Assembly (NCBI GenBank): GCA_041987885.1
Contig: JBHIVS010000001.1
Coordinates: 1 to 52,219 of the forward strand
Source of the DNA: Pseudobdellovibrionaceae bacterium
Lineage (GTDB): Bacteria > Bdellovibrionota > Bdellovibrionia > Bdellovibrionales > Bdellovibrionaceae
Length of the DNA stretch: 52,219 nucleotides
Direction: 5' to 3'
Shown piece by piece: positions 7,607-48,031 of this stretch. The position numbers were made by a program, and so were the translations under genes. A model generated the notes under the pieces. The model made no database searches and was not told where the DNA came from. It was given only the letters and a program-made list of their open reading frames with translations. Every line of letters starts with the position of its first letter. Within the stretch, counting starts at the first letter, position 1.

Positions 7607-8773
7607 ATGAATTATAAAGCGATACCGTTGAAACTATTCCTATCGTTGGGTGCAATTTTTGTAACCTGCCTGCCAATTAATGCGATGGCTGCTGGGCAGT
7701 GTGAATCAGTGTTTTCAACAAATGTTTCTTACTTTAAAGAGTCTATGGAGCCGATTAGAGCTTTAAGTAGAATGAGCTTGGTTCTTAAGGATAAGTATTT
7801 AAAGGGCTCTGGGCAGTTAACGCAAAAAGAAGTTGTCGATCAGCTGACAGAAATGAAGCAATTGGCGGAGACTTATTTCGATAAAGCCGGCATTTCGTAT
7901 GAAATCCAATGGACTTCTTTTGGTTTTAAAAATTTAAAAGATAGCGCAAACTATAATTCTAAATATCCAGTTTATAAGATTAAGGGTTCAAAACATGGAG
8001 ATGAAGTCTCTAGAATGATTTATGGGGTATTGTCACATCCCTTATATCGGAAAAAGGCTGTTACTTTTCAATTTGATCTTCTTTATGGAATAAAAGCAGA
8101 GTCTGTAGGTCATTATGATACAGGTACAAATATTATTCATATAGGTCCTTATGCTTTGGCTGCAGAGATTTCTGGCCTTACAAATACTGTTCGCCATGAG
8201 GTTCAGCATTATTTTGAGCATATGAAAATTCTTGAAAAGAAGCAGACGACGGCAAGAATTTCATTTTCTGAGGCTCATCCAAAATCAAAAGATCCATATC
8301 ATGATTACTTCCGTTTGGATGAAATAGAAACTCATCTGAGAGATCTTCGGACGATGCTTAGTTTTGATTCTAGATCTGCAAAAGACAAACTTTTTGCAGG
8401 TCATGTGACTCCCGAGGTTTGGAATAATATTTTGGCAAATCGTAAAGTCGTTATCTCTGATAAGTTTGAGACTTTGGATATGATGCTGACGAACTCAGAT
8501 AAAATTCTAATTCATTTACAAGAAAAAACTTATCCAAATGCATTTTTTGAAAACCATGCTAATGGAGAATGGATGGGAGTTTATCTGTTAGATGGATATT
8601 CCTATTCCGTAGTCAGGATTGATTTTTACGGATTGTTCCCAAAGCCCCAATATGAAATGACCAAACCAGAAATTTCGAAAATAGTAAAAGAAACTTTGGA
8701 TTGGAACCATAAGCGAGTTCGAGAAATTCGTGTCGAGTTTGAAAAGTTGAAATTAAAAGCTAACTCAAGATAG
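7607..8773 (+). CDS. Secreted hypothetical protein with HExxH zincin-like motif
   Basis: Signal peptide followed by CESVF; RHEVQHY and a downstream acidic LDEIE segment. Confidence 0.55.
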   Translation: MNYKAIPLKLFLSLGAIFVTCLPINAMAAGQCESVFSTNVSYFKESMEPIRALSRMSLVLKDKYLKGSGQLTQKEVVDQLTEMKQLAETYFDKAGISYEIQWTSFGFKNLKDSANYNSKYPVYKIKGSKHGDEVSRMIYGVLSHPLYRKKAVTFQFDLLYGIKAESVGHYDTGTNIIHIGPYALAAEISGLTNTVRHEVQHYFEHMKILEKKQTTARISFSEAHPKSKDPYHDYFRLDEIETHLRDLRTMLSFDSRSAKDKLFAGHVTPEVWNNILANRKVVISDKFETLDMMLTNSDKILIHLQEKTYPNAFFENHANGEWMGVYLLDGYSYSVVRIDFYGLFPKPQYEMTKPEISKIVKETLDWNHKRVREIRVEFEKLKLKANSR

Positions 8774-13208: not shown

Positions 13209-13291
13209 GCGCGGGTGGTGGAATTGGTAGACACGTACGTTTGAGGGGCGTATGCGCAAGCGTGAGGGTTCAAGTCCCTCCTCGCGCACCA
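13209..13291 (+). tRNA. tRNA-Leu(GAG)
   Basis: Acceptor GCGCGGG/CTCGCGC-ACCA, D-loop GGAATTGGTAGAC, anticodon arm TACGT-TTGAGGG-GCGTA, long variable arm, GGTTCAAGTCC T-arm. Confidence 0.97.
13276..13291 (+). repeat. attL core
   Basis: CCCTCCTCGCGCACCA, identical to 48016-48031. Confidence 0.92.
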
Positions 13292-13430: not shown

Positions 13431-13452
13431 CTTACAACTTTCTTACAACTTT
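13431..13452 (+). repeat. Integrase arm-type sites (left)
   Basis: CTTACAACTTT x2, identical 22-mer at 47935-47956. Confidence 0.8.
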
Positions 13453-21640: not shown

Positions 21641-21672
21641 TAAAGCTTTAATAAAATTAAAAGTAGATTAAA
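21641..21672 (+). promoter_or_regulatory. 32-bp late-gene upstream element, copy 1
   Basis: TAAAGCTTTAATAAAATTAAAAGTAGATTAAA, 28/32 identical to 23600-23631. Confidence 0.7.
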
Positions 21673-22154: not shown

Positions 22155-23602
22155 TGAGCGAGGTCCGCGAAGCTTTAGCTATTATTGAAGAAATAGAGCG
22201 ACGAAAGCGTGAGAATAAAATCCGCTCTTATTATCCCGACACTGGAAAACTTGCGCGTGAGTTTTACAAAAAGCACATGGCGTTTTTTGCGGCTGGTAGT
22301 GAGTACAATGAGCGGTTAATGCTAGCGGCGAATCGTGTTGGGAAAACCGAAGGCGTTGGTGCCTATGAAGTGACTCTGCACTTAACAGGTGATTATCCTA
22401 TCTGGTGGCCTGGCAGACGCTTTAATAAGGCAACAGAGGGCTGGGCTGCGGGCGATAGCTTAGAAACTGTGCGCGATATTATCCAAAATAAACTTCTAGG
22501 GAAATTAGAAGATGTCGGCACAGGGATGATTCCTAAAGATAAAATCCATTCCGTTACGCGCAGAACAGGCAAAGCGGAAATGGTTGATACGATTTACGTT
22601 AGGCATAAATCAGGCGGCATTAGCTCACTTGCTTTGAAATCATATGATCAAGGTCGTAAATCATTCCAAGGAACAAAGAAAGATTTTCTATGGCTAGATG
22701 AAGAGCCACCGTTAGATATTTACACTGAGTGTTTGCTCCGTACGATGGACACGTCAGGCGATGAAAACTCAACCAATGGTCTAATGATTCTGACATTTAC
22801 ACCGCTTTCAGGAATGTCTGAAACTGTTTTATCTTTTTTGCCAAATGGTGAAGTGAAGGAAGAAATCAGAGAAAATAAATATGTCGTCATGGCATCATGG
22901 GATGACGTGCCTCATTTAACCAAAGAGGCGAAAGACCTTTTGTGGGCCTCTATTCCGCCGCACCAGCGAGATGCGAGGTCTAAAGGTATCCCTGCACTTG
23001 GATCTGGTGCGATTTACCCGGTTACTGAATCTGACATCTTTGTCGATGATTTTGCAATACCAGATCACTGGCCTAGAGCTTACGGCTTAGACGTTGGCTG
23101 GAATAGAACTGCGTGCGCTTGGGGTGCATTAGATAAAGAGTCGGATATTTTATACGTCTACTCAGAACACTATCGCGGACAAGCCGAAGCATCGATTCAT
23201 GCTGAGAGTATTAAATCTCGTGGTGATTGGATACCAGGTGTTATTGATCCAGCCTCAAGGGGACGCGCTCAAGCTGACGGCAAGCAATTACTGCAAATGT
23301 ATATTGATTTAGGTCTTGATATAGATGTCGCTAACAACGCGGTTGAGTCTGGAATTTACGAAGTATGGCAGAGGATGTCTACAGGTCGCCTGAAAATATT
23401 CAATTCATGCTCTAACATTAAGGCAGAGTTTAGATTGTACCGCCGCGATGATAAAGGGCGCATTGTAAAAGAATCAGATCACTTAATGGATGCGCTTAGG
23501 TATTTAGTTATGTCTGGCATCTTGCGTGCGAAAACTAAAGAGAAGAAAAAGCCAAAAAGCGGCTACCATTATGGAATAACTGCGGATTCATGGATGAGTT
23601 AA
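22154..23602 (+). CDS. terL: Terminase large subunit (P22 gp2-like)
   Basis: AANRVGKT Walker A, WLDEEPP Walker B, LTFTPL.G, GLDVGW, DHLMDALRY. Confidence 0.95.
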   Translation: MSEVREALAIIEEIERRKRENKIRSYYPDTGKLAREFYKKHMAFFAAGSEYNERLMLAANRVGKTEGVGAYEVTLHLTGDYPIWWPGRRFNKATEGWAAGDSLETVRDIIQNKLLGKLEDVGTGMIPKDKIHSVTRRTGKAEMVDTIYVRHKSGGISSLALKSYDQGRKSFQGTKKDFLWLDEEPPLDIYTECLLRTMDTSGDENSTNGLMILTFTPLSGMSETVLSFLPNGEVKEEIRENKYVVMASWDDVPHLTKEAKDLLWASIPPHQRDARSKGIPALGSGAIYPVTESDIFVDDFAIPDHWPRAYGLDVGWNRTACAWGALDKESDILYVYSEHYRGQAEASIHAESIKSRGDWIPGVIDPASRGRAQADGKQLLQMYIDLGLDIDVANNAVESGIYEVWQRMSTGRLKIFNSCSNIKAEFRLYRRDDKGRIVKESDHLMDALRYLVMSGILRAKTKEKKKPKSGYHYGITADSWMS

Positions 23603-23631
23603 AGCTTTAATTTTATTAAAATTAGATTAAA
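23600..23631 (+). promoter_or_regulatory. 32-bp late-gene upstream element, copy 2
   Basis: TAAAGCTTTAATTTTATTAAAATTAGATTAAA. Confidence 0.7.
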
Positions 23632-31337: not shown

Positions 31338-31666
31338 AATCACTATACGGTCAATATATCAAAGAGCGCGAAGGGTTTGAAATTCTTGAAGATGAAAACG
31401 GTTTTGCTACTTATAAAATAAGCGGCAAAGAATGCTATATCAGAGATATTTTCGTTAAACCAGAGTTTAGGAAAATGAACTTGGCTTCAAAGTATGCAGA
31501 TGAAATTGCAGAAATCGCAAAAAAACTAGGATGTACTCATCTTAGTGGAACCGTAGCGCCAATGGCGAATGGATCAACTCAAAGTATTCAGGTTTTGTTG
31601 GGTTATGGTTTTAAACTTTTAAGTTCTGATAATCAAAAAATTGTATTTATTAAGGAGATTGCGTAA
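31325..31666 (+). CDS. GNAT acetyltransferase-like protein
   Basis: YIRDIFVKPEFRKMNLAS..AD...AKKLGC..L.G, GF motif; likely start 31334. Confidence 0.8.
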   Translation: MGFMKSLYGQYIKEREGFEILEDENGFATYKISGKECYIRDIFVKPEFRKMNLASKYADEIAEIAKKLGCTHLSGTVAPMANGSTQSIQVLLGYGFKLLSSDNQKIVFIKEIA

Positions 31667-32493
31667 TGGGTGATGTATGGTCGGACATAACAGGTCAAAC
31701 AGCTAGTAAAAATGCTCAAAAATCTCAAACTGCTGCCACAAATAACGCTAATCAGGCACTAACAAGTTCGTATAATTCACAAGTTTCCTATTTAAATCCT
31801 TATGCGGGTGCTGGTTCTGCAGCTTTAGATCAACTTGCAGGTGGCAATATTGGTTCTAATTATCAACAAAGTGCTGGTTATCAAGCTCAAATGGAAGCTG
31901 GTCAGAATGCAATCAATAATCAAATGGCAGCAAGAGGAATGGGAAATTCCGGTGCTGCACTAAAAGCATTGACTAGCTACTCTCAAGATTTAGCAGATCA
32001 AGATTATCAGCAATATTATCAAAATGAATCTAATAGACTAAGTCAACTTGCAGGCATGGGGCAAAATGCTGCGAATAACTTGGCTAGTGCAGCTGGTTCT
32101 TATGGTTCAAATCTTTCTAACAATTATATGGGCCTTGGAAATGCATCAGCTGCAGCTCAAATCGGACAATATAACCAAATGGCGGGACTTGCCACTGAAG
32201 GTTTTAAAGGTGGCGCTACGGCTTTAGCTTTTTCCGATGAACGACTTAAAACAAATGTTTCAGTGATTGATTCAAAAGAAATTAAAGAATTTAGAAAAAA
32301 TCTTACTCCATATCTTTTTGAATACATCTCAAAGGAGCATGGCGAAGGTCAGTGGGCGGGAGTTATGGCCCAAGATTTAGAAAAATCTAAACTAGGCAAG
32401 CTTGTTGTTCTTGAAGATAAAGACGGCAATAAGCAAATCGACATTAAAAAAGCAGTTTCTCTTTTACTAGCGCTTCAAGCGGAGGTGGCATAA
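31666..32493 (+). CDS. Putative DNA ejection protein (gp7-like) with C-terminal peptidase S74-like domain
   Basis: G/A/N/Q-rich, PYA.AG..AL, GYQ...G..A....AARG...SGA.LKAL; FSDERLKTNV...Y.Y...GVMAQDLE. Confidence 0.75.
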   Translation: MGDVWSDITGQTASKNAQKSQTAATNNANQALTSSYNSQVSYLNPYAGAGSAALDQLAGGNIGSNYQQSAGYQAQMEAGQNAINNQMAARGMGNSGAALKALTSYSQDLADQDYQQYYQNESNRLSQLAGMGQNAANNLASAAGSYGSNLSNNYMGLGNASAAAQIGQYNQMAGLATEGFKGGATALAFSDERLKTNVSVIDSKEIKEFRKNLTPYLFEYISKEHGEGQWAGVMAQDLEKSKLGKLVVLEDKDGNKQIDIKKAVSLLLALQAEVA

Positions 32494-33512
32494 TGACTGG
32501 CGTTGACCACACAATTTACTTTAAACAAGAGGTCCCTAAGTTTGGCACTGCAATTTTGAGTGGACTTACTCAAGGCATGAAAATGCGTGACCAAGTTGAT
32601 AAAAGAAACTTTCAGCAGGCAGAAATGCAAAGATTAGATCAACTAAGAGCACATGAATCAGAGATTCAGAATGCTCTTAGTCAGTCCATTGTTAAAGGGG
32701 CAGATGGGTCTTCTTCTATTGATAATAAGATTTATCAAAGCAATATAGCAAATCTTGCTGGAAGTAATCCTCTTGCTGCTCAGAAATTGCAAGAGTTTAA
32801 TCTAGGACTAGAGCAGCGACAAAGGGATACTCAGAAGTTTGAGGCAGATCAACAGCAGCGTGGTCTTGATAATCAGTTTAGACAAGCTCAAATGAGAAAG
32901 CTTAATGCTGAAACTAATCAGTTGATGCAAAAGCCTACAGATCCAATTTCAAAACTAACTGAAGCGGAAAAGACTGTAGATAAAACTTTCGGTAAAGATT
33001 ATGTAGACTGGACATCGGGCGGACGTCAGAGCGCCTTGTCTGAGATTAATAAACTTGAAGGAGTCGTAGGTCGTCTTGGGGATAAAGTTACTACTGGCGG
33101 TCTAACAGGGATGCTCCCTGATAGATTAACATCAAATGATGTTTTAAGCGCTAGATCCGATGTGCAATCAACAGTAATGAATTCACTTCGAGCTATTCTA
33201 GGGGCGGCATTTACAGAAAAAGAAGGTGAAAGAGTAATTAGAAACACTTGGAATGAAGCTGATTCAACAGAGAATAATAAAGCAAGACTTCAGAGGCTTG
33301 TTGATAACTTAAAAGATCAGGCTGCTGCAAAAGATGCTCAATCTAATTATTACGAAGGAAATAGAACTCTCTCAGGATACAAGCCAGTTTCCGAGATAAA
33401 TATGTCTCCTAGAGCTACTAAGCAAGATTCTGAAGCAGTTTCATGGGCAAAGAAAAATCCAAATGATCCAAGATCAGCAGCGATATTAAAAGCTAACGGA
33501 TTTGGGGGCTAA
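32493..33512 (+). CDS. Putative DNA ejection protein (gp20-like position)
   Basis: Helical, Q-rich; LGAAFTEKEG; C-terminal AVSWAKKNPNDPRS. Confidence 0.65.
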   Translation: MTGVDHTIYFKQEVPKFGTAILSGLTQGMKMRDQVDKRNFQQAEMQRLDQLRAHESEIQNALSQSIVKGADGSSSIDNKIYQSNIANLAGSNPLAAQKLQEFNLGLEQRQRDTQKFEADQQQRGLDNQFRQAQMRKLNAETNQLMQKPTDPISKLTEAEKTVDKTFGKDYVDWTSGGRQSALSEINKLEGVVGRLGDKVTTGGLTGMLPDRLTSNDVLSARSDVQSTVMNSLRAILGAAFTEKEGERVIRNTWNEADSTENNKARLQRLVDNLKDQAAAKDAQSNYYEGNRTLSGYKPVSEINMSPRATKQDSEAVSWAKKNPNDPRSAAILKANGFGG

Positions 33513-35687
33513 ATGGCATTTGATCCTGATGCATATTTAAAGCAAAAAACTGCACAATCTAAGTCCACTGGTTTTGACCCAGATACTTATCTTGAATCAA
33601 AAAGGGAAAAAGCATCTACCTTAGAATCTGCTGCAAGGGGTGCCGCTCAAGGTGTGTCGGGTGGCCTAGCAGACGAAATCTATGGCGGCATAAAAGCGAT
33701 TGGCGATGATTTTAAGAAAATGTTTTCTGATGAACCAAAAGCTAAAGCTGTGCGCGATGAATTCGGGCGAGTAACGAATTTAGATGAAATCAACAAAGGC
33801 ACTACTTACGAAAAATATAGAGATGAGTGGCGCGAAGGTGATCGGCTGGCTAATAAAGACAATCCAAAAACAGCATTTGTCGCTGAGCTAGTCGGTGGTA
33901 TTGCTTCACCAATCAATAAAATTGCTAAAGGAAAAAGCGCTGCACAAGCTGGCTTGCGACTCGGTGGAGTTTATGGCTTCGGTAAATCAGAGGCAGAAGA
34001 TTTAGGCGAAATTGCTGCTGACACAGCAATAGGTGCGGGGGCTGGTTTAGTTTTAGGCAAAGGCATTGAAAAAGGAATTGAAAAAGGTGCGCCGCTTGTA
34101 GGTAAAGGCATGAAATATGCGGGCGATAAAGTTGCAGCATTATCAAAAAAGATTGCTGATGCTACGATTGAATCTGGCCCTGCCGATAATGCTCAAGCTG
34201 TTATCGAGGCCACTAAGCGACTAGGTGCAAGTCCAACTCCTGCAATGCTCACTAAATCTCAACACGTTCAAATGCTAGAACAATCACTAGCAGATAGCCC
34301 TAGCTATTTCGGGAAGCGCATTTATGGGCAACGTCAAAAGGTCTTAGACGCAATCACGGATAAGACCGATGATGTTTTGCGCGAGGGTGCAGGCGAATCA
34401 CCTTATCAAGTGGGTGAAGAGTTTAAAAGAGGAATGATCGGGAAATTGCATGAGCGCATTGATCCTGCAACGGCAACCTTTGATGAGATTCGAGCGATTT
34501 CAACACAAATGCCTGTCGGTGAGCGATCTATCAACTCTGTTTTAAATAATATTTCAAAAATTCCAGAGGTTCGTTTATCTGGTGGTGCAAACGTATCTAA
34601 ATACACTGATATGATTTCAAGAGCGACGAGCGCAGATGATTTGCATAGAATTAGCTCAATGATAAACGCAGATGCAAGGGCTGCGCAAGGATCTGAAAAG
34701 CATTTGCTTGGATTGATAAACGATAAAGTAAAAAATCTTGCTGACAACTCGACCATGCGTGCAGCGATTAAAGTCGCAAAAGAAGGCGGGATGCGCGAGA
34801 ACACTGGGAAGAAAATCGGGACTGAGATAGTTCAAGAACTGCGCGATGCAAGATCTGCTTATCGTGGGGCAGCTCAAGATTTTGGGGATGTGTCGCGAAA
34901 TGCTAGAATCAAATTCAAAGGCCCTCAGACTTATGTTGATGATTTAGAGGCGATTGCTTCTGAGGATATTCAAAAGAAATTCTTTAACACAAAAGATATT
35001 TCGCAACTAAATGTTTTAAAGGAAAAATTCCCAGAGCAATTCGAGCTACTAAGACGCGGTGAGATTGGTAAAATTTCAAGCGCAATCGAGGGCATAGCTC
35101 AAGGCTCACGCGGCGAGACGCAAGTAAATAAGTTTCTAAATCAAGTGCGCAAATTATCGCCCGAAGCTCAAGACATGATTTTAGGACAAGGCAAATCGGT
35201 TGTTGACGATATTTCTACCGTCTACACTAACTTTCCTAAAAATCATAATCCTTCAGGCACCGCAAAAATGAATGCTCTTAATGAGATTCTAACCTCAAAC
35301 ATTAAAGACGCAGGGAAATACCTTTACTATAAAGGCGCCTCTTCAAATATGGCAGGCAAACTAGGCCAACGTGCAAGGGAAGTGGCGCAAATGTCTCCTG
35401 ATGCAATCGCAATTAGCAATGCAACAAAAAGACTATCGGAGCCGCTTAATAGAATAGTCGTGCGCGGAGCAAGTGATATTCCTGCGACTGGCCCTGAGAG
35501 ATGGATCAGTAAAGGGGCTGAAAGATTAACGGCTGAAGGAATTTCTCAAGAAGAAATTGAAAATTTACAATCAACTAAACAAGGCCGCGCTTTACTGATT
35601 GAAGCATCGGACGCGAAGCCCAATTCTAAAAGACTTGAATCTGTTTTGCGAAGATTAAGAACAGCAACAAGTCAAGGGGGCCAATAA
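33513..35687 (+). CDS. Putative large DNA ejection protein (gp16-like position)
   Basis: N-terminal FDPDAYL/FDPDTYL repeats, RGAAQG...GLADE, Gly/Ala-rich hydrophobic segment, NPSGTA. Confidence 0.7.
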   Translation: MAFDPDAYLKQKTAQSKSTGFDPDTYLESKREKASTLESAARGAAQGVSGGLADEIYGGIKAIGDDFKKMFSDEPKAKAVRDEFGRVTNLDEINKGTTYEKYRDEWREGDRLANKDNPKTAFVAELVGGIASPINKIAKGKSAAQAGLRLGGVYGFGKSEAEDLGEIAADTAIGAGAGLVLGKGIEKGIEKGAPLVGKGMKYAGDKVAALSKKIADATIESGPADNAQAVIEATKRLGASPTPAMLTKSQHVQMLEQSLADSPSYFGKRIYGQRQKVLDAITDKTDDVLREGAGESPYQVGEEFKRGMIGKLHERIDPATATFDEIRAISTQMPVGERSINSVLNNISKIPEVRLSGGANVSKYTDMISRATSADDLHRISSMINADARAAQGSEKHLLGLINDKVKNLADNSTMRAAIKVAKEGGMRENTGKKIGTEIVQELRDARSAYRGAAQDFGDVSRNARIKFKGPQTYVDDLEAIASEDIQKKFFNTKDISQLNVLKEKFPEQFELLRRGEIGKISSAIEGIAQGSRGETQVNKFLNQVRKLSPEAQDMILGQGKSVVDDISTVYTNFPKNHNPSGTAKMNALNEILTSNIKDAGKYLYYKGASSNMAGKLGQRAREVAQMSPDAIAISNATKRLSEPLNRIVVRGASDIPATGPERWISKGAERLTAEGISQEEIENLQSTKQGRALLIEASDAKPNSKRLESVLRRLRTATSQGGQ

Positions 35688-40508: not shown

Positions 40509-41114
40509 TTATTTTGAAAACTTTTTTTCAAGCAGTTTCATCGATGTTGACGAAGGAGATACGGGAATTGGTTTGAATTGTGATAGTATTTTTTTAGACA
40601 TGGTTAGCGGGATTGCATTTACTTTTTTAAATTCATCCGATAAATGCTTCATATCGTAATTCAAGCAAACGAGTATTTTTTTGGAAAACATTTTACAGAC
40701 AGACTCAATCGCGGGTAATAAGTCAGTGTCTGATGAAAAAATATAAGCTTGATCATAATTGTTGTAAAAAGCATCTATAATTAAATCTGTAGCAATTCTA
40801 ACATCAACGCCTTTTTCGACTGGGTATTTTTCTCCTTTAAACTGTCCGTAGAAAACTTTTATCCCTAAAACATCTTCGACATGGCGATAGAAAGCGTCGT
40901 CCCTGTGGTGTTTTGCTTGGTCTATTTCAGCAGGAAACCTCGCTCCATACATTTTGTATAGAATGTTCTTATTGTATTTCCCATTGTCGGTGATGAAGAG
41001 ATCGGCGAGTTTTTTGTAGTCATAACCTAAAGCATCGAAACCTAGGCCTTCTAGGGTGTGAATCATATTTCTACTGTCGAAATAAGCGATCGCCTTAAGA
41101 ATAATTGACCTCAA
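40509..41114 (-). CDS. NYN domain (LabA/DUF88, PIN-like) ribonuclease
   Basis: AYFDSRN, EKGVDVRIATDL, YD.A.IFSSDTDLLPA acidic catalytic motifs; start uncertain (TTG 41114 or ATT 41102). Confidence 0.9.
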   Translation of the reverse strand: MRSIILKAIAYFDSRNMIHTLEGLGFDALGYDYKKLADLFITDNGKYNKNILYKMYGARFPAEIDQAKHHRDDAFYRHVEDVLGIKVFYGQFKGEKYPVEKGVDVRIATDLIIDAFYNNYDQAYIFSSDTDLLPAIESVCKMFSKKILVCLNYDMKHLSDEFKKVNAIPLTMSKKILSQFKPIPVSPSSTSMKLLEKKFSK

Positions 41115-41183
41115 AAAAAAGTAAAGGGATATGACCTTTCGACCATATCCCCACCCTTTCAGCTATTAACATCAGGGCATGCA
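41113..41183 (-). ncRNA. Putative ~70-nt RNA ending in an intrinsic terminator upstream of NYN
   Basis: -10 TATACT at 41194-41189; TGCCCT/AGGGTG stem; GGGATATGGTC-GAAA-GGTCATATCCC plus TTTACTTTTTTTT. Confidence 0.5.
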
Positions 41184-41416: not shown

Positions 41417-41962
41417 TTACCTAAACAACCAAGATAGCCATTTTTTGAATAGAAAGAGCGCAACAGAAAAGCCAAACAAGAAAGTCGCAATGAATAGCGG
41501 TATTGAATACTTCGGGTTATTGTCGGTTATAACTCTGCTCGATGAAATCTTTTTAACTGGTTTCTCTTCAGAATTATGCAGATTTTCTATCGATATATTT
41601 GAAATTCTACATTTTTCAAGAAGCTCTCTCTCAAGATGTGCTGGCCCTTTTAGGTATCCAGACTCACTAAAAATTAAGGTAGAATTTTTATTTTCTAAAT
41701 ACTTATCTGGATCGAATGTTTCCTTCCAAGTAGAGGGTTGATCAATGGGGTAAAGATCCCAATTAAATTCTCCAATTTGAATCTTTACATCTTTGAAGTT
41801 TTCATCAAAACAATTTTGAGCTTCTTTTATTACGTATTTATCGTAGGCCGTGATTGGCAGTCCGATAACTATAAATCCGATTCCAATTGTTACGATGAGA
41901 CATTGAACTGATAAATAAAGCTTATACCCAACTGATTTAAATTTAGACTTCATGGGATACAA
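41417..41962 (-). CDS. Two-TM inner-membrane lysogeny protein, candidate superinfection exclusion factor
   Basis: N- and C-terminal TM helices around a ~110-aa loop containing FDPDKYL; directly downstream of repressor. Confidence 0.6.
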   Translation of the reverse strand: MYPMKSKFKSVGYKLYLSVQCLIVTIGIGFIVIGLPITAYDKYVIKEAQNCFDENFKDVKIQIGEFNWDLYPIDQPSTWKETFDPDKYLENKNSTLIFSESGYLKGPAHLERELLEKCRISNISIENLHNSEEKPVKKISSSRVITDNNPKYSIPLFIATFLFGFSVALFLFKKWLSWLFR

Positions 41963-41977
41963 ATCGGTTAATCGATA

Positions 41978-42361
41978 CTAATCCTTAACCTGTTTTCTAT
42001 TTTCTTTTTTCAAACTCAATAAATTTTGTGCTGATAACTTAATCATCTCAAGTTGAGACGAGTCTAGGCTATTTAAAAGAGACTGAATCTCTAGGATTAG
42101 GGAGGCGCGGTCGGTTCGAGGCTCATTGTGGGCAGAAATGGAAGAGCTATCAACAGCCCCTAATAAGTGATTAGGCGTAATTTTTAGGGTTTCACAAATC
42201 AAATTTAGCAATTCAACAGAAGGCTCGCGCTCATCTCTCATTAATTGATTGAGGTATGAAAGGCTTACTCCGAGCGCATCTGCGGCCTCTTTGTAAGTTT
42301 TATATCCTTGTTTTTTGATCTCAGATCTTAAGCGCGATCCGAAAACCTTAGTATTTTCCAT
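41978..42361 (-). CDS. Phage repressor (XRE/HTH_3), no S24 peptidase domain
   Basis: FGSRLR, TYKEAADALGVSLSYLNQLMRDEREPS..LL..IC..L.ITPNHLLG. Confidence 0.88.
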   Translation of the reverse strand: MENTKVFGSRLRSEIKKQGYKTYKEAADALGVSLSYLNQLMRDEREPSVELLNLICETLKITPNHLLGAVDSSSISAHNEPRTDRASLILEIQSLLNSLDSSQLEMIKLSAQNLLSLKKENRKQVKD

Positions 42362-42373
42362 TAATTATAAGCC

Positions 42374-42446
42374 TATACGCATATAGCGTCATTTTCTATA
42401 AGCCATGTGCGTATATTTGTTGATAAGTATATGCAAATAGCGTATA
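42374..42446. promoter_or_regulatory. Three operators TATAnGC-N5-GCGTATA and rightward promoter
   Basis: 42374-42392, 42397-42415, 42428-42446; TTGATA(42420)-N17-TATATT(42443). Confidence 0.8.
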
Positions 42447-42465
42447 TTTGTATGCAGAGGTAATA

Positions 42466-45030: not shown

Positions 45031-45089
45031 TAAAATTTAAAAGAGGGTGAATAAATGCAAATCACACACAAACTAGAATGGATAGTATA

Positions 45090-45908
45090 ATGCTTGGACG
45101 CGTCCGTTGGAGCGATGTGTATGCGGGCAATGGAATTATTCGCGGCGACGATGGGAATGAATATTACTTCGATATTTCAGTCATTAAGTTTCCTTATCGA
45201 TCGGCAGATCTTCGCTCAGGTTGTCGTGTTTCATTTGCAGTCAACGAGCGAATCAGTGATTGCCCATGTGCTCATCAAGTAGTGTGGATTAAAGATAAAA
45301 ATGTGGAGTTTGATGTGAAAAATATTTGTGGATTAAAAGAAAGTCAATTTGAGAAAATTTATTCTCTATATCGCAAGGACGTAAGTGTATTGCCAAAAAC
45401 TGGTGGACACAGAGGGTTTAATATTTTTTGTCAGGCATATGACTACGAAAGTAGAGATCGTCTGTCTAAGATAACATTTGAAATTATTACGGATACCGCT
45501 CCTAGTGAGACTCAAATAGATAATGCACTTAGGGAAGAATTGATTCGCCGCTTAGAAGTAGCAAGTGGGGATTTTACGGACGCTGTTTTCGGTTACTTTA
45601 AGTCACAAAATAGAAAATATGTTGAGATGTTTAAGTCTGATATTTGTGACCTGTTAATCGAGAACTCAAAACTTTTTGAAAAAATCTTATTGGAAAATAT
45701 CGATCACCCAGAGGTGAATGAGTTATTTCAGAGAATTCTAGATCATAACACATATCAAGCAGAGCAGGATCTATTGGTTGAAGCAGAGAGAGCATGTCGG
45801 CAGCAAGCCCAAGACAGAAGAATGCAGCAAGATTTAAAGACAGTTAAGAAGAAACGAACACCAAAACAAAAACTAAAAGAAGATGAGTTTGGAGAGTTGA
45901 AGATATGA
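45090..45908 (+). CDS. Cold-shock (OB-fold) domain fused to an unknown domain
   Basis: GRVRW....G.GII..DDG.EYYFDIS.I....L..G.RVSF; start 45090 or 45078. Confidence 0.6.
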   Translation: MLGRVRWSDVYAGNGIIRGDDGNEYYFDISVIKFPYRSADLRSGCRVSFAVNERISDCPCAHQVVWIKDKNVEFDVKNICGLKESQFEKIYSLYRKDVSVLPKTGGHRGFNIFCQAYDYESRDRLSKITFEIITDTAPSETQIDNALREELIRRLEVASGDFTDAVFGYFKSQNRKYVEMFKSDICDLLIENSKLFEKILLENIDHPEVNELFQRILDHNTYQAEQDLLVEAERACRQQAQDRRMQQDLKTVKKKRTPKQKLKEDEFGELKI

Positions 45909-46801: not shown

Positions 46802-47917
46802 ATGACTAACGACCGCGCAAGATATATCAAAATGAATGGGCATCTAGGGTTTTATCAAAATGCGGTTTCAAAAAGAATCCGATATATTAAAGTTCACAAT
46901 GGAGTTACGGTAAGGCTTTCAACCAAAGCGACTAAAATCACGGATGCCAAAAAGATTGTCGATGAATATTTGATAAATCTTTTCTCTGAAAATCCTAAAA
47001 AAGACCTTTTAAAGAAAAAAGGCATTCAAAATCCATTGATCTCGAAAATTTGGAAAGAGCTTGTCGAGTCTAGATCCGTATCAAGGCAAGAAACTACTAT
47101 TGAAGGGTATGATGTATCTTGGCGCATCGGCATTGAGCCTTTTTGGGGCAAGAAAACCGTTCTTGAACTCAATCCAAGAGTTATGAGTGAATACGAGAAA
47201 TGGTATCTACAAAAACACAAAGAGCGTGTATTTTTTAATACCGGAAAGCACTTGGCGATGCTTATTCGCTATTGTCATCAAAACGGATATATTCAAAAAA
47301 TAGTGCCCGTCCCTGATATTGACCTAATCATAAACACAAGAACTCAAAAAGAAAAAGTGGGCAGGGTATATACAGACGCTGAGTACAAAGCTTGTATTGC
47401 CCATGCTTTTAATCCCATGATCAAGGTAGCCCTAACTTGTTACCGACATCTTGGGATGCGCAAAATGGAGCTTTTATCATCAAAGATTGAGCACTGGGAC
47501 TTGAAGAATAAAACCCTTAAGCTTTGGTCTGCCAAAAATAAGAAGTGGCGCACTGTTGTGATCCCAGATGTCGTTTTAGCGGCAATCAATGAATGGTTAG
47601 AAATTAGGCAAGATTCGATTTGGATGTTTCCTTCCGCAACAAATTCAGAAAAGCACGTCGTCTCTCAGGTCTTTGATGAGCAATGGACTAAGACAAAAAT
47701 CGCCGCAGAAATAGAAAATGCAGATGTTGAAAACGCTGCAAGGATCCATGACTGGAGGCATACTTTTGCCACCATGACAGCTCGTGACGGATGGCCTCCG
47801 ATAGCAGCTTGCTATGTTTTAGATATGTCTTTGCAGGAGTATCAAAATACCTATACTCACGTTTCGATGAAGGATATAATGAAGTTGATGATTAAGTCTT
47901 TCGGTGGTCAGAAATGA
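46802..47917 (+). CDS. int: Tyrosine integrase
   Basis: GMRKMEL (R), KNKKWR (K), HDWRHTFAT (HxxR), LDMS...TYTH (Y); adjacent to attR. Confidence 0.92.
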   Translation: MTNDRARYIKMNGHLGFYQNAVSKRIRYIKVHNGVTVRLSTKATKITDAKKIVDEYLINLFSENPKKDLLKKKGIQNPLISKIWKELVESRSVSRQETTIEGYDVSWRIGIEPFWGKKTVLELNPRVMSEYEKWYLQKHKERVFFNTGKHLAMLIRYCHQNGYIQKIVPVPDIDLIINTRTQKEKVGRVYTDAEYKACIAHAFNPMIKVALTCYRHLGMRKMELLSSKIEHWDLKNKTLKLWSAKNKKWRTVVIPDVVLAAINEWLEIRQDSIWMFPSATNSEKHVVSQVFDEQWTKTKIAAEIENADVENAARIHDWRHTFATMTARDGWPPIAACYVLDMSLQEYQNTYTHVSMKDIMKLMIKSFGGQK

Positions 47918-47934: not shown

Positions 47935-47956
47935 CTTACAACTTTCTTACAACTTT
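47935..47956 (+). repeat. Integrase arm-type sites (right)
   Basis: CTTACAACTTTCTTACAACTTT, identical to 13431-13452. Confidence 0.8.
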
Positions 47957-47985: not shown

Positions 47986-48015
47986 TTATTGTCTAAAATA
48001 GAAATATGTTTTAGG

Positions 48016-48031
48016 CCCTCCTCGCGCACCA
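48016..48031 (+). repeat. attR core (duplicated tRNA 3' end)
   Basis: CCCTCCTCGCGCACCA. Confidence 0.92.

Follow-up and report, generated by a model that had tools for sequence, protein, structure and literature searches.

Why should a membrane protein encoded next to a prophage repressor carry, in its loop, the same peptide with which the DNA ejection protein of that phage begins? The question is raised by a gene at positions 41417 to 41962, on the reverse strand, of the window (the whole stretch of 52,219 nucleotides analyzed here). The first-pass annotation had placed the peptide, FDPDxYL, twice at the start of the large ejection protein and once in this membrane protein, and the coordinates are confirmed: FDPDAYLK (33519 to 33542) and FDPDTYLE (33573 to 33596) open the 724-residue gp16-like open reading frame on the forward strand, and FDPDKYLE lies at 41693 to 41716 on the reverse strand. 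These three copies, all within one prophage, are the only ones in the whole assembly among 3,340 stop-to-stop frames of at least 100 residues (883,957 residues). The expected number is 0.013 genome-wide and 2.5e-6 for a protein of 181 residues, figures that are flattering because the pattern was picked after the fact. With three copies seen against 0.013 expected, a chance origin of the sharing was rejected. A recent DNA duplication was rejected as the source of the loop copy, which differs synonymously from the second ejection copy in three of seven codons for shared residues and from the first in two of six; codons that differ while the residues are kept indicate that the loop copy is not a fresh duplicate.

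The prophage, its ejection genes, and the repressor-linked membrane protein

The prophage spans positions 13268 to 48031 and is integrated at tRNA-Leu, with repeats at 13268 to 13291 and 48008 to 48031 and an integrase at 46802 to 47917. It is assigned to the P22-like phages by PHROGs matches of its portal (phrog_156), capsid (phrog_283), and head-closure (phrog_578) proteins, and among the top-scoring related prophages of the genome collection, several are labeled Bdellovibrionales or Bdellovibrionaceae. Just inside each end is a copy of an identical 22-nt repeat (13431 to 13452 and 47935 to 47956), possibly an integrase arm site, and the terminase gene pair is flanked by an AT-rich repeat of 32 nt whose copies are 88% alike (21641 to 21672 and 23600 to 23631). 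An early gene at 45078 to 45908 encodes a weak cold-shock-like N terminus (E value of 0.038) fused to an unknown domain.

Downstream of the head-closure genes, three forward-strand open reading frames follow in the P22 gene order 7, 20, 16, the order that the accessible parts of the P22 literature give for the gp7/gp20/gp16 channel genes after the head-closure gene (bioRxiv 10.64898/2026.09.03.749273; PMC8954989). The first (31666 to 32493) encodes a gp7 homologue that matches phrog_598 (“DNA ejection,” E value of 1.5e-24) and ends in a Peptidase_S74 domain (PF13884, E value of 2e-7); phrog_578, phrog_598, and the gene order together identify a P22-like ejection cluster. The second (32493 to 33512, 339 residues) and the third (33513 to 35687) are named gp20-like and gp16-like from gene order only, with no named family match. 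Six of seven aligned relatives of the gp7-like protein share its Peptidase_S74 C terminus, and very large host proteins in genomes G137 and G076 end in similar domains. The gp20-like and gp16-like genes (32493 to 35687) share one reading frame with a single TAA and then the ATG directly between them, so that the tail module of the one adjoins the head module of the other and both could be swapped together in a single short DNA cassette. The tail is a predicted two-helix hairpin (WAxxNPNDPRSAAI, 33420 to 33497), the putative receptor of FDPDxYL, and the head, a swappable N-terminal module, carries the doubled peptide (33519 to 33596).

The membrane protein is 181 residues long when read from the TTG at 41962 and 178 residues long from the ATG at 41953, the likely start. 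As first described, its gene lies right after the repressor on the same strand: it begins 24 nt past the stop codon of the HTH repressor gene (41978 to 42361, reverse strand; PF01381, E value of 2.4e-10), and no terminator-like site was found in between. The protein is likely made in the lysogen, and it is of the class expected of an exclusion protein, being a small prophage membrane protein encoded where repressor linkage predicts lysogenic expression. An NYN-domain protein is encoded downstream on the same strand (40509 to 41114; PF01936, E value of 2.3e-7), with a terminator-like hairpin at 41152 to 41125 between the two genes; the prophage L021 has an NYN-like gene, recognized by eye, close to its immunity region as well (7641 to 8270). 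A sigma-70-like promoter (42364 to 42392) ends 2 nt before the repressor ATG, too near for a normal leader, so the start or the promoter may differ, and operator-like repeats lie nearby at 42397 to 42420 and 42428 to 42451. A short contig of sequencing run X8 that contains the 3′ end of the repressor gene turns into a different sequence at the point where the membrane protein gene starts (41961); this one contig, at a depth of 2, hints at an exchangeable slot behind the repressor. Contig breaks near the ends of the gene in runs X3 and X6 were left out of the evidence.

The protein has two hydrophobic segments (approximately residues 14 to 38 and 153 to 173) and basic termini, with four Lys or Arg residues in the first 16 positions and three in the last 10. 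An AlphaFold2 model (pLDDT of 83.8) consists of two long helices and a small beta region. On these features, together with an invariant cysteine pair, both ends are predicted to be cytoplasmic and the loop between Cys51 and Cys118 (41609 to 41812, reverse strand) to be periplasmic and closed by a disulfide. In this loop, FNWDLYP (41747 to 41767) precedes FDPDKYLE, as the first-pass annotation had it, and the latter falls in a low-confidence stretch of the model (residues 71 to 90). The protein has no family match in Pfam, PHROGs, NCBIfam, or PADLOC, and a fold search with the model against PDB and BFVD returned none at an E value of 0.001; the top three matches in the ESM Atlas are unnamed and weak (0.88 to 0.90).

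Co-variation of gp20-like tails and gp16-like heads

The first-pass annotation had suggested that FDPDxYL is a docking peptide, possibly for the C-terminal domain of the gp20-like protein, and two counts in related phages agree with a partnership of this kind. Among 92 loci found through other genes, a set that leaves out the locus itself and L137 to L139 (fetched with the tail), the peptide opens the gp16-like protein in all five loci with a WAxxNPxDPR hairpin tail and in none of the 87 without it. Conversely, all 12 loci (nine distinct sequences) fetched by the C-terminal 49 residues of the gp20-like protein alone continue with a gene that starts with a doubled F[DN]PDx[YF]L. Related loci in these counts are not independent. 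One of the five hairpin loci, L162, has both modules in common with the other four, to which it is unrelated in the bodies of its proteins (local scores of 28 to 57). A PDB sequence search with the hairpin profile gave nothing meaningful.

Other tails and heads also occur as matched pairs, namely, a GYxFxGGxP tail with a PWE[KQ] head and a VVQxGxxYTLN tail with a KF[DN]PNxxFE head, although seven of the eight class patterns were derived from the same data on which they were counted. In some loci, the polarity is reversed, with gp20 ending in a short peptide and gp16 starting with a small domain. A pattern-free test on 2,536 pairs of loci with unrelated bodies revealed similar heads in 10 of 31 pairs with similar tails and in 64 of the 2,505 others, and the internal-window control gave 0 of 17. 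Over the whole matrix, the rank correlation between tails and heads is weak (rho of 0.06, a value matched by the highest of 500 permutations). Doubling is a common property of the heads, being found in 51 of 87 gp16-like proteins, whereas internal windows are doubled in three. The gp16-like protein P0025 is 91% identical to that of the prophage overall, but identity falls to 26% in the N-terminal 50 residues, and the head of P0025 is a domain found on the gp20 tail in L152 (score of 78); by such comparisons, the head is a module that swaps fast.

The co-switching of tail and head among many types, here as a hairpin with a doubled peptide, bears on what is known of P22 and Sf6. The two phages differ in tail/head type: in P22, gp20 terminates in a short peptide and gp16 starts with a small domain (L238, 1070 to 4314), like L081 and L201, and Sf6 carries a different pair (L239, 2263 to 5555), like L053. 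Both share with loci studied here the plan of a short peptide ending gp20 and a small domain opening gp16, whereas the prophage has the reverse polarity, with the domain on gp20 and the doubled peptide on gp16. Leavitt et al. report, in the available text, that swapping gp16 or gp20 singly between P22 and Sf6 is nonfunctional and that the double swap works (PMC10883804). The differing types may explain this incompatibility, although the ejection proteins of the two phages differ outside the junction as well. In situ structures locate the C-terminal foot of gp20 at the outer surface of the inner membrane and have gp16 reach it by diffusion, and AlphaFold3 models in the same work, as far as its accessible text goes, set the gp20 tail beside residues 1 to 205 of gp16 in an assembly of 12 gp20 and 6 gp16, the copy number not being settled (bioRxiv 10.64898/2026.09.03.749273). 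The accessible parts of the P22 papers leave open how gp16 finds gp20 and what makes both genes so variable; the channel papers, to the same extent, do not describe a swappable tail/head code, and the gp20 tail is unresolved there.

From the co-switching, the doubled heads, the P22/Sf6 swaps, and the gp20 foot seen in situ, we infer that tail and head very probably form a physical handshake, with the two peptides of each gp16 serving two gp20 tails. Such a handshake would let the foot of the periplasmic gp20 tube capture gp16 diffusing in the membrane, and two peptide copies on each gp16 would agree with a 12:6 ratio. The co-switching elements define a minimal interface of a 26-residue domain and an 8-residue peptide. 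Compared with the initial reading, the partnership of FDPDxYL now has a count-based test.

Loop peptides in the membrane protein family

A search of 1.84 billion representatives retrieved 20 relatives of the membrane protein, and a profile search added one. Both cysteines that flank the loop are invariant in 21 of 21 aligned rows, and scaffold positions K14, S18, P36, YD40-41, D147, P150, W175, and W178 are conserved. The loop between the cysteines varies from 13 to 90 residues. The family has no match in PHROGs and none to PADLOC families at an E value of 0.01, and the Pfam and NCBIfam search gave only three weak matches, each in a single member.

Some of these loops resemble ejection heads. 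In a comparison with the N-terminal 45 residues of each of the 92 gp16-like proteins, 7 of 21 loops, this protein included and the near-duplicate P0005 left out, score at least 34, whereas none of 133 membrane-flanked loops of host proteins does so. Against internal windows of the ejection proteins, none of the 21 reaches 30, a score at which shuffles give 1.8. The remaining 14 loops match no ejection head in the library. The first-pass annotation had asked for conservation of the motif among homologues, and this was not borne out: FDPDxYL occurs in 6 of the 21 aligned members, and others carry other head peptides. These six require five changes on the scaffold tree, are no more clustered than shuffles, and have the peptide at different loop positions, which, on a tree with support for 4 of 18 branches, suggests that FDPDxYL was gained or lost repeatedly.

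A scan with a head library enlarged by 17 further ejection proteins, in which all 12,881 host windows scored below 32, detects two or three peptide types per loop in four members. The loop of this protein (P0001) carries FNWDLY and FDPDKY, that of P0006 carries FNWNDF, PWEKYQ, and FDPDQY, that of P0010 carries KDGTVY-VGDDEW, KFDPNQ, and FDPDAY, and that of P0021 carries GGDDWA, FDPNKP, and PWNKYP. FNWDLY scores 33 against FNWDNY, the doubled head motif of L021, in apparent agreement with the proposal that this peptide is directed at a different phage group. In run X4, a 95%-identical allele has FNWDLY(P) changed at three of seven residues, all three codon changes being nonsynonymous, and the stretch from 41610 to 41750, which includes FDPDKYLE, unchanged. 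The same run contains a near-identical gp16 body with a P0025-type head and a second phage with a hairpin/FDPD junction, loose ends identified by eye that the contigs do not link to the membrane protein gene.

Few members of the family can be placed in a genome. Searches with the family profile (A1) gave matches in 3 of 390 and 2 of 401 genomes, counting the genome of origin, and this window is the only one in which a motif-bearing member is tied to a prophage. The relatives in the three genomes with readable surroundings (G137, G076, and G592) have host or island genes around them and carry no motif; a search of these genomes with A5 found Peptidase_S74-type tail matches only in two genomes, nothing in the third, and no gp7-like gene. 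Viral contigs (P0001 and P0013), metagenome contigs (P0013 and A4), and annotated phages yielded no further genomic contexts.

A candidate decoy, its alternatives, and known exclusion systems

The arrangement described above points, on balance, to a protein that is probably a periplasmic decoy, predicted from sequence to occupy incoming gp20 tails and so to block channel completion and DNA entry of P22-like phages. The parts visible in the sequences are the paired switching of tails and heads and the fixed two-helix scaffold with its cysteine pair and variable loop peptides. What would follow is that, on the periplasmic side of the inner membrane, the gp20 tails are taken up by the loop peptide, so that gp16 cannot dock, the channel remains incomplete, and the DNA stays out. 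FDPDKYL would cover the type of the prophage itself and FNWDLY a second type. Such a mechanism, if true, would exclude phages in a way whose targets are predictable from sequence, with several phage types covered by one small protein. A wider picture, to which we give slightly less than an even chance, is that a swappable peptide-domain lock of many types joins tube to pore in P22-like phages and that the family is a reprogrammable scaffold that collects the keys of several phages in one disulfide-closed loop, its target range being readable from sequence and changeable by peptide swap, and the diversity of locks being the escape side of an arms race.

Conservation of the scaffold at the positions listed above goes well beyond the needs of a tether and would suit a sensor, in which the loop binds the incoming 12-mer gp20 foot as bait, the scaffold clusters, and membrane damage or a partner such as the NYN protein is triggered so that the cell aborts infection. 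The persistence of motif-less relatives outside prophages, one of them near a toxin-antitoxin-like gene pair identified by eye, and the NYN gene next on the same strand fit this idea, and SNIPE is a precedent for defense at the injection site in the available text (PMC13190303). However, the protein has neither an enzyme domain nor a long cytoplasmic part, the terminator-like hairpin separates its gene from the NYN gene, none of the 21 members has a PADLOC match, and a killing bait of the prophage's own type would need silencing in its lytic cycle, so that we regard a sensor as unlikely. Exclusion could also come about by occupation of a host envelope factor in a YajC-like role, with the peptide binding this factor and not gp20; for SieA, the accessible text leaves YajC occlusion open as an alternative (PMC10883804). 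This is quite improbable here, as the peptide type tracks the gp20 tail across unrelated phages, many peptide types exist among phages of related hosts, and a small domain common to the L152 gp20 tail and the head of P0025 fits a handshake between two phage parts.

That two thirds of the loops have no detected motif, and that FNWDLY is eroded by nonsynonymous changes in a close relative, would be expected if the peptides were tolerated passengers or relics of recombination on a scaffold with a different exclusion or envelope function. Relics would not be expected to show matches confined to the N-terminal 45 residues of ejection proteins (7 of 21 loops, compared with 0 of 21 for interior windows), to accumulate as several types per loop, or to keep their residues through synonymous change, and this explanation is rather improbable. 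A function in the lytic cycle, either holding ejection proteins in assembly or stopping injection by readsorbed progeny, would account for the loop peptide of the self type, and upregulation of sieA on induction is reported in the available text (PMC10883804). Yet the gene lies on the repressor strand, opposite to the late genes, the periplasmic loop would be out of reach of cytoplasmic assembly, and foreign peptide types would be useless, which makes such a function very improbable.

The candidate decoy can be set beside known exclusion proteins. T4 Imm and HK97 gp15 are small membrane proteins that block DNA entry, as is proposed here; they differ in having no PHROGs or Pfam match to this family, and we know of neither displaying copies of phage peptides. 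The parallel originally drawn with P22 SieA stands as an analogy of place and step: SieA is a small inner-membrane protein of a prophage of the P22-like group, and the block of DNA entry at the gp20/gp16 step that is shown for it in the accessible text (PMC10883804) would apply here by inference. Homology is absent, as the family profile aligned to P22 SieA gives an hhalign probability of 0.5% (E value of 0.11), SieA has three predicted transmembrane segments against two here, and sieA follows gene 16 directly on the opposite strand, whereas the gene described here is 5.7 kb more distant and follows the repressor. On these three differences, membership of the protein in the SieA family was rejected. 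The same source, as far as its available text goes, reports that SieA excludes phages of different junction types and that escape mutations map to residues 338 to 350 of gp20 and residues 532 and 546 of gp16, outside the tail and head modules, and does not propose mimicry for SieA (PMC10883804). Because the escape mutations lie elsewhere and its reach is broad, these data speak against a use of the junction modules by SieA. SNIPE, too, defends the cell from the inner membrane while the phage injects, and it probably contacts one of the injected phage proteins, but, according to the accessible text, it is a nuclease directed against siphoviruses via tape-measure proteins (PMC13190303), whereas the membrane protein has no enzyme domain. 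In a literature search, the titles and opening abstracts found, most subscription papers lying outside its coverage, described neither a tail/head code nor exclusion by a peptide mimic.

Among 762 small hydrophobic open reading frames from 95 related loci, no convincing second decoy of a phage's own type was found, the four matches being low-complexity or misassigned. A membrane protein in one related phage contig (L088, 12290 to 12826) carries PWEKY, a head type that is not that of its own phage; this may be chance.
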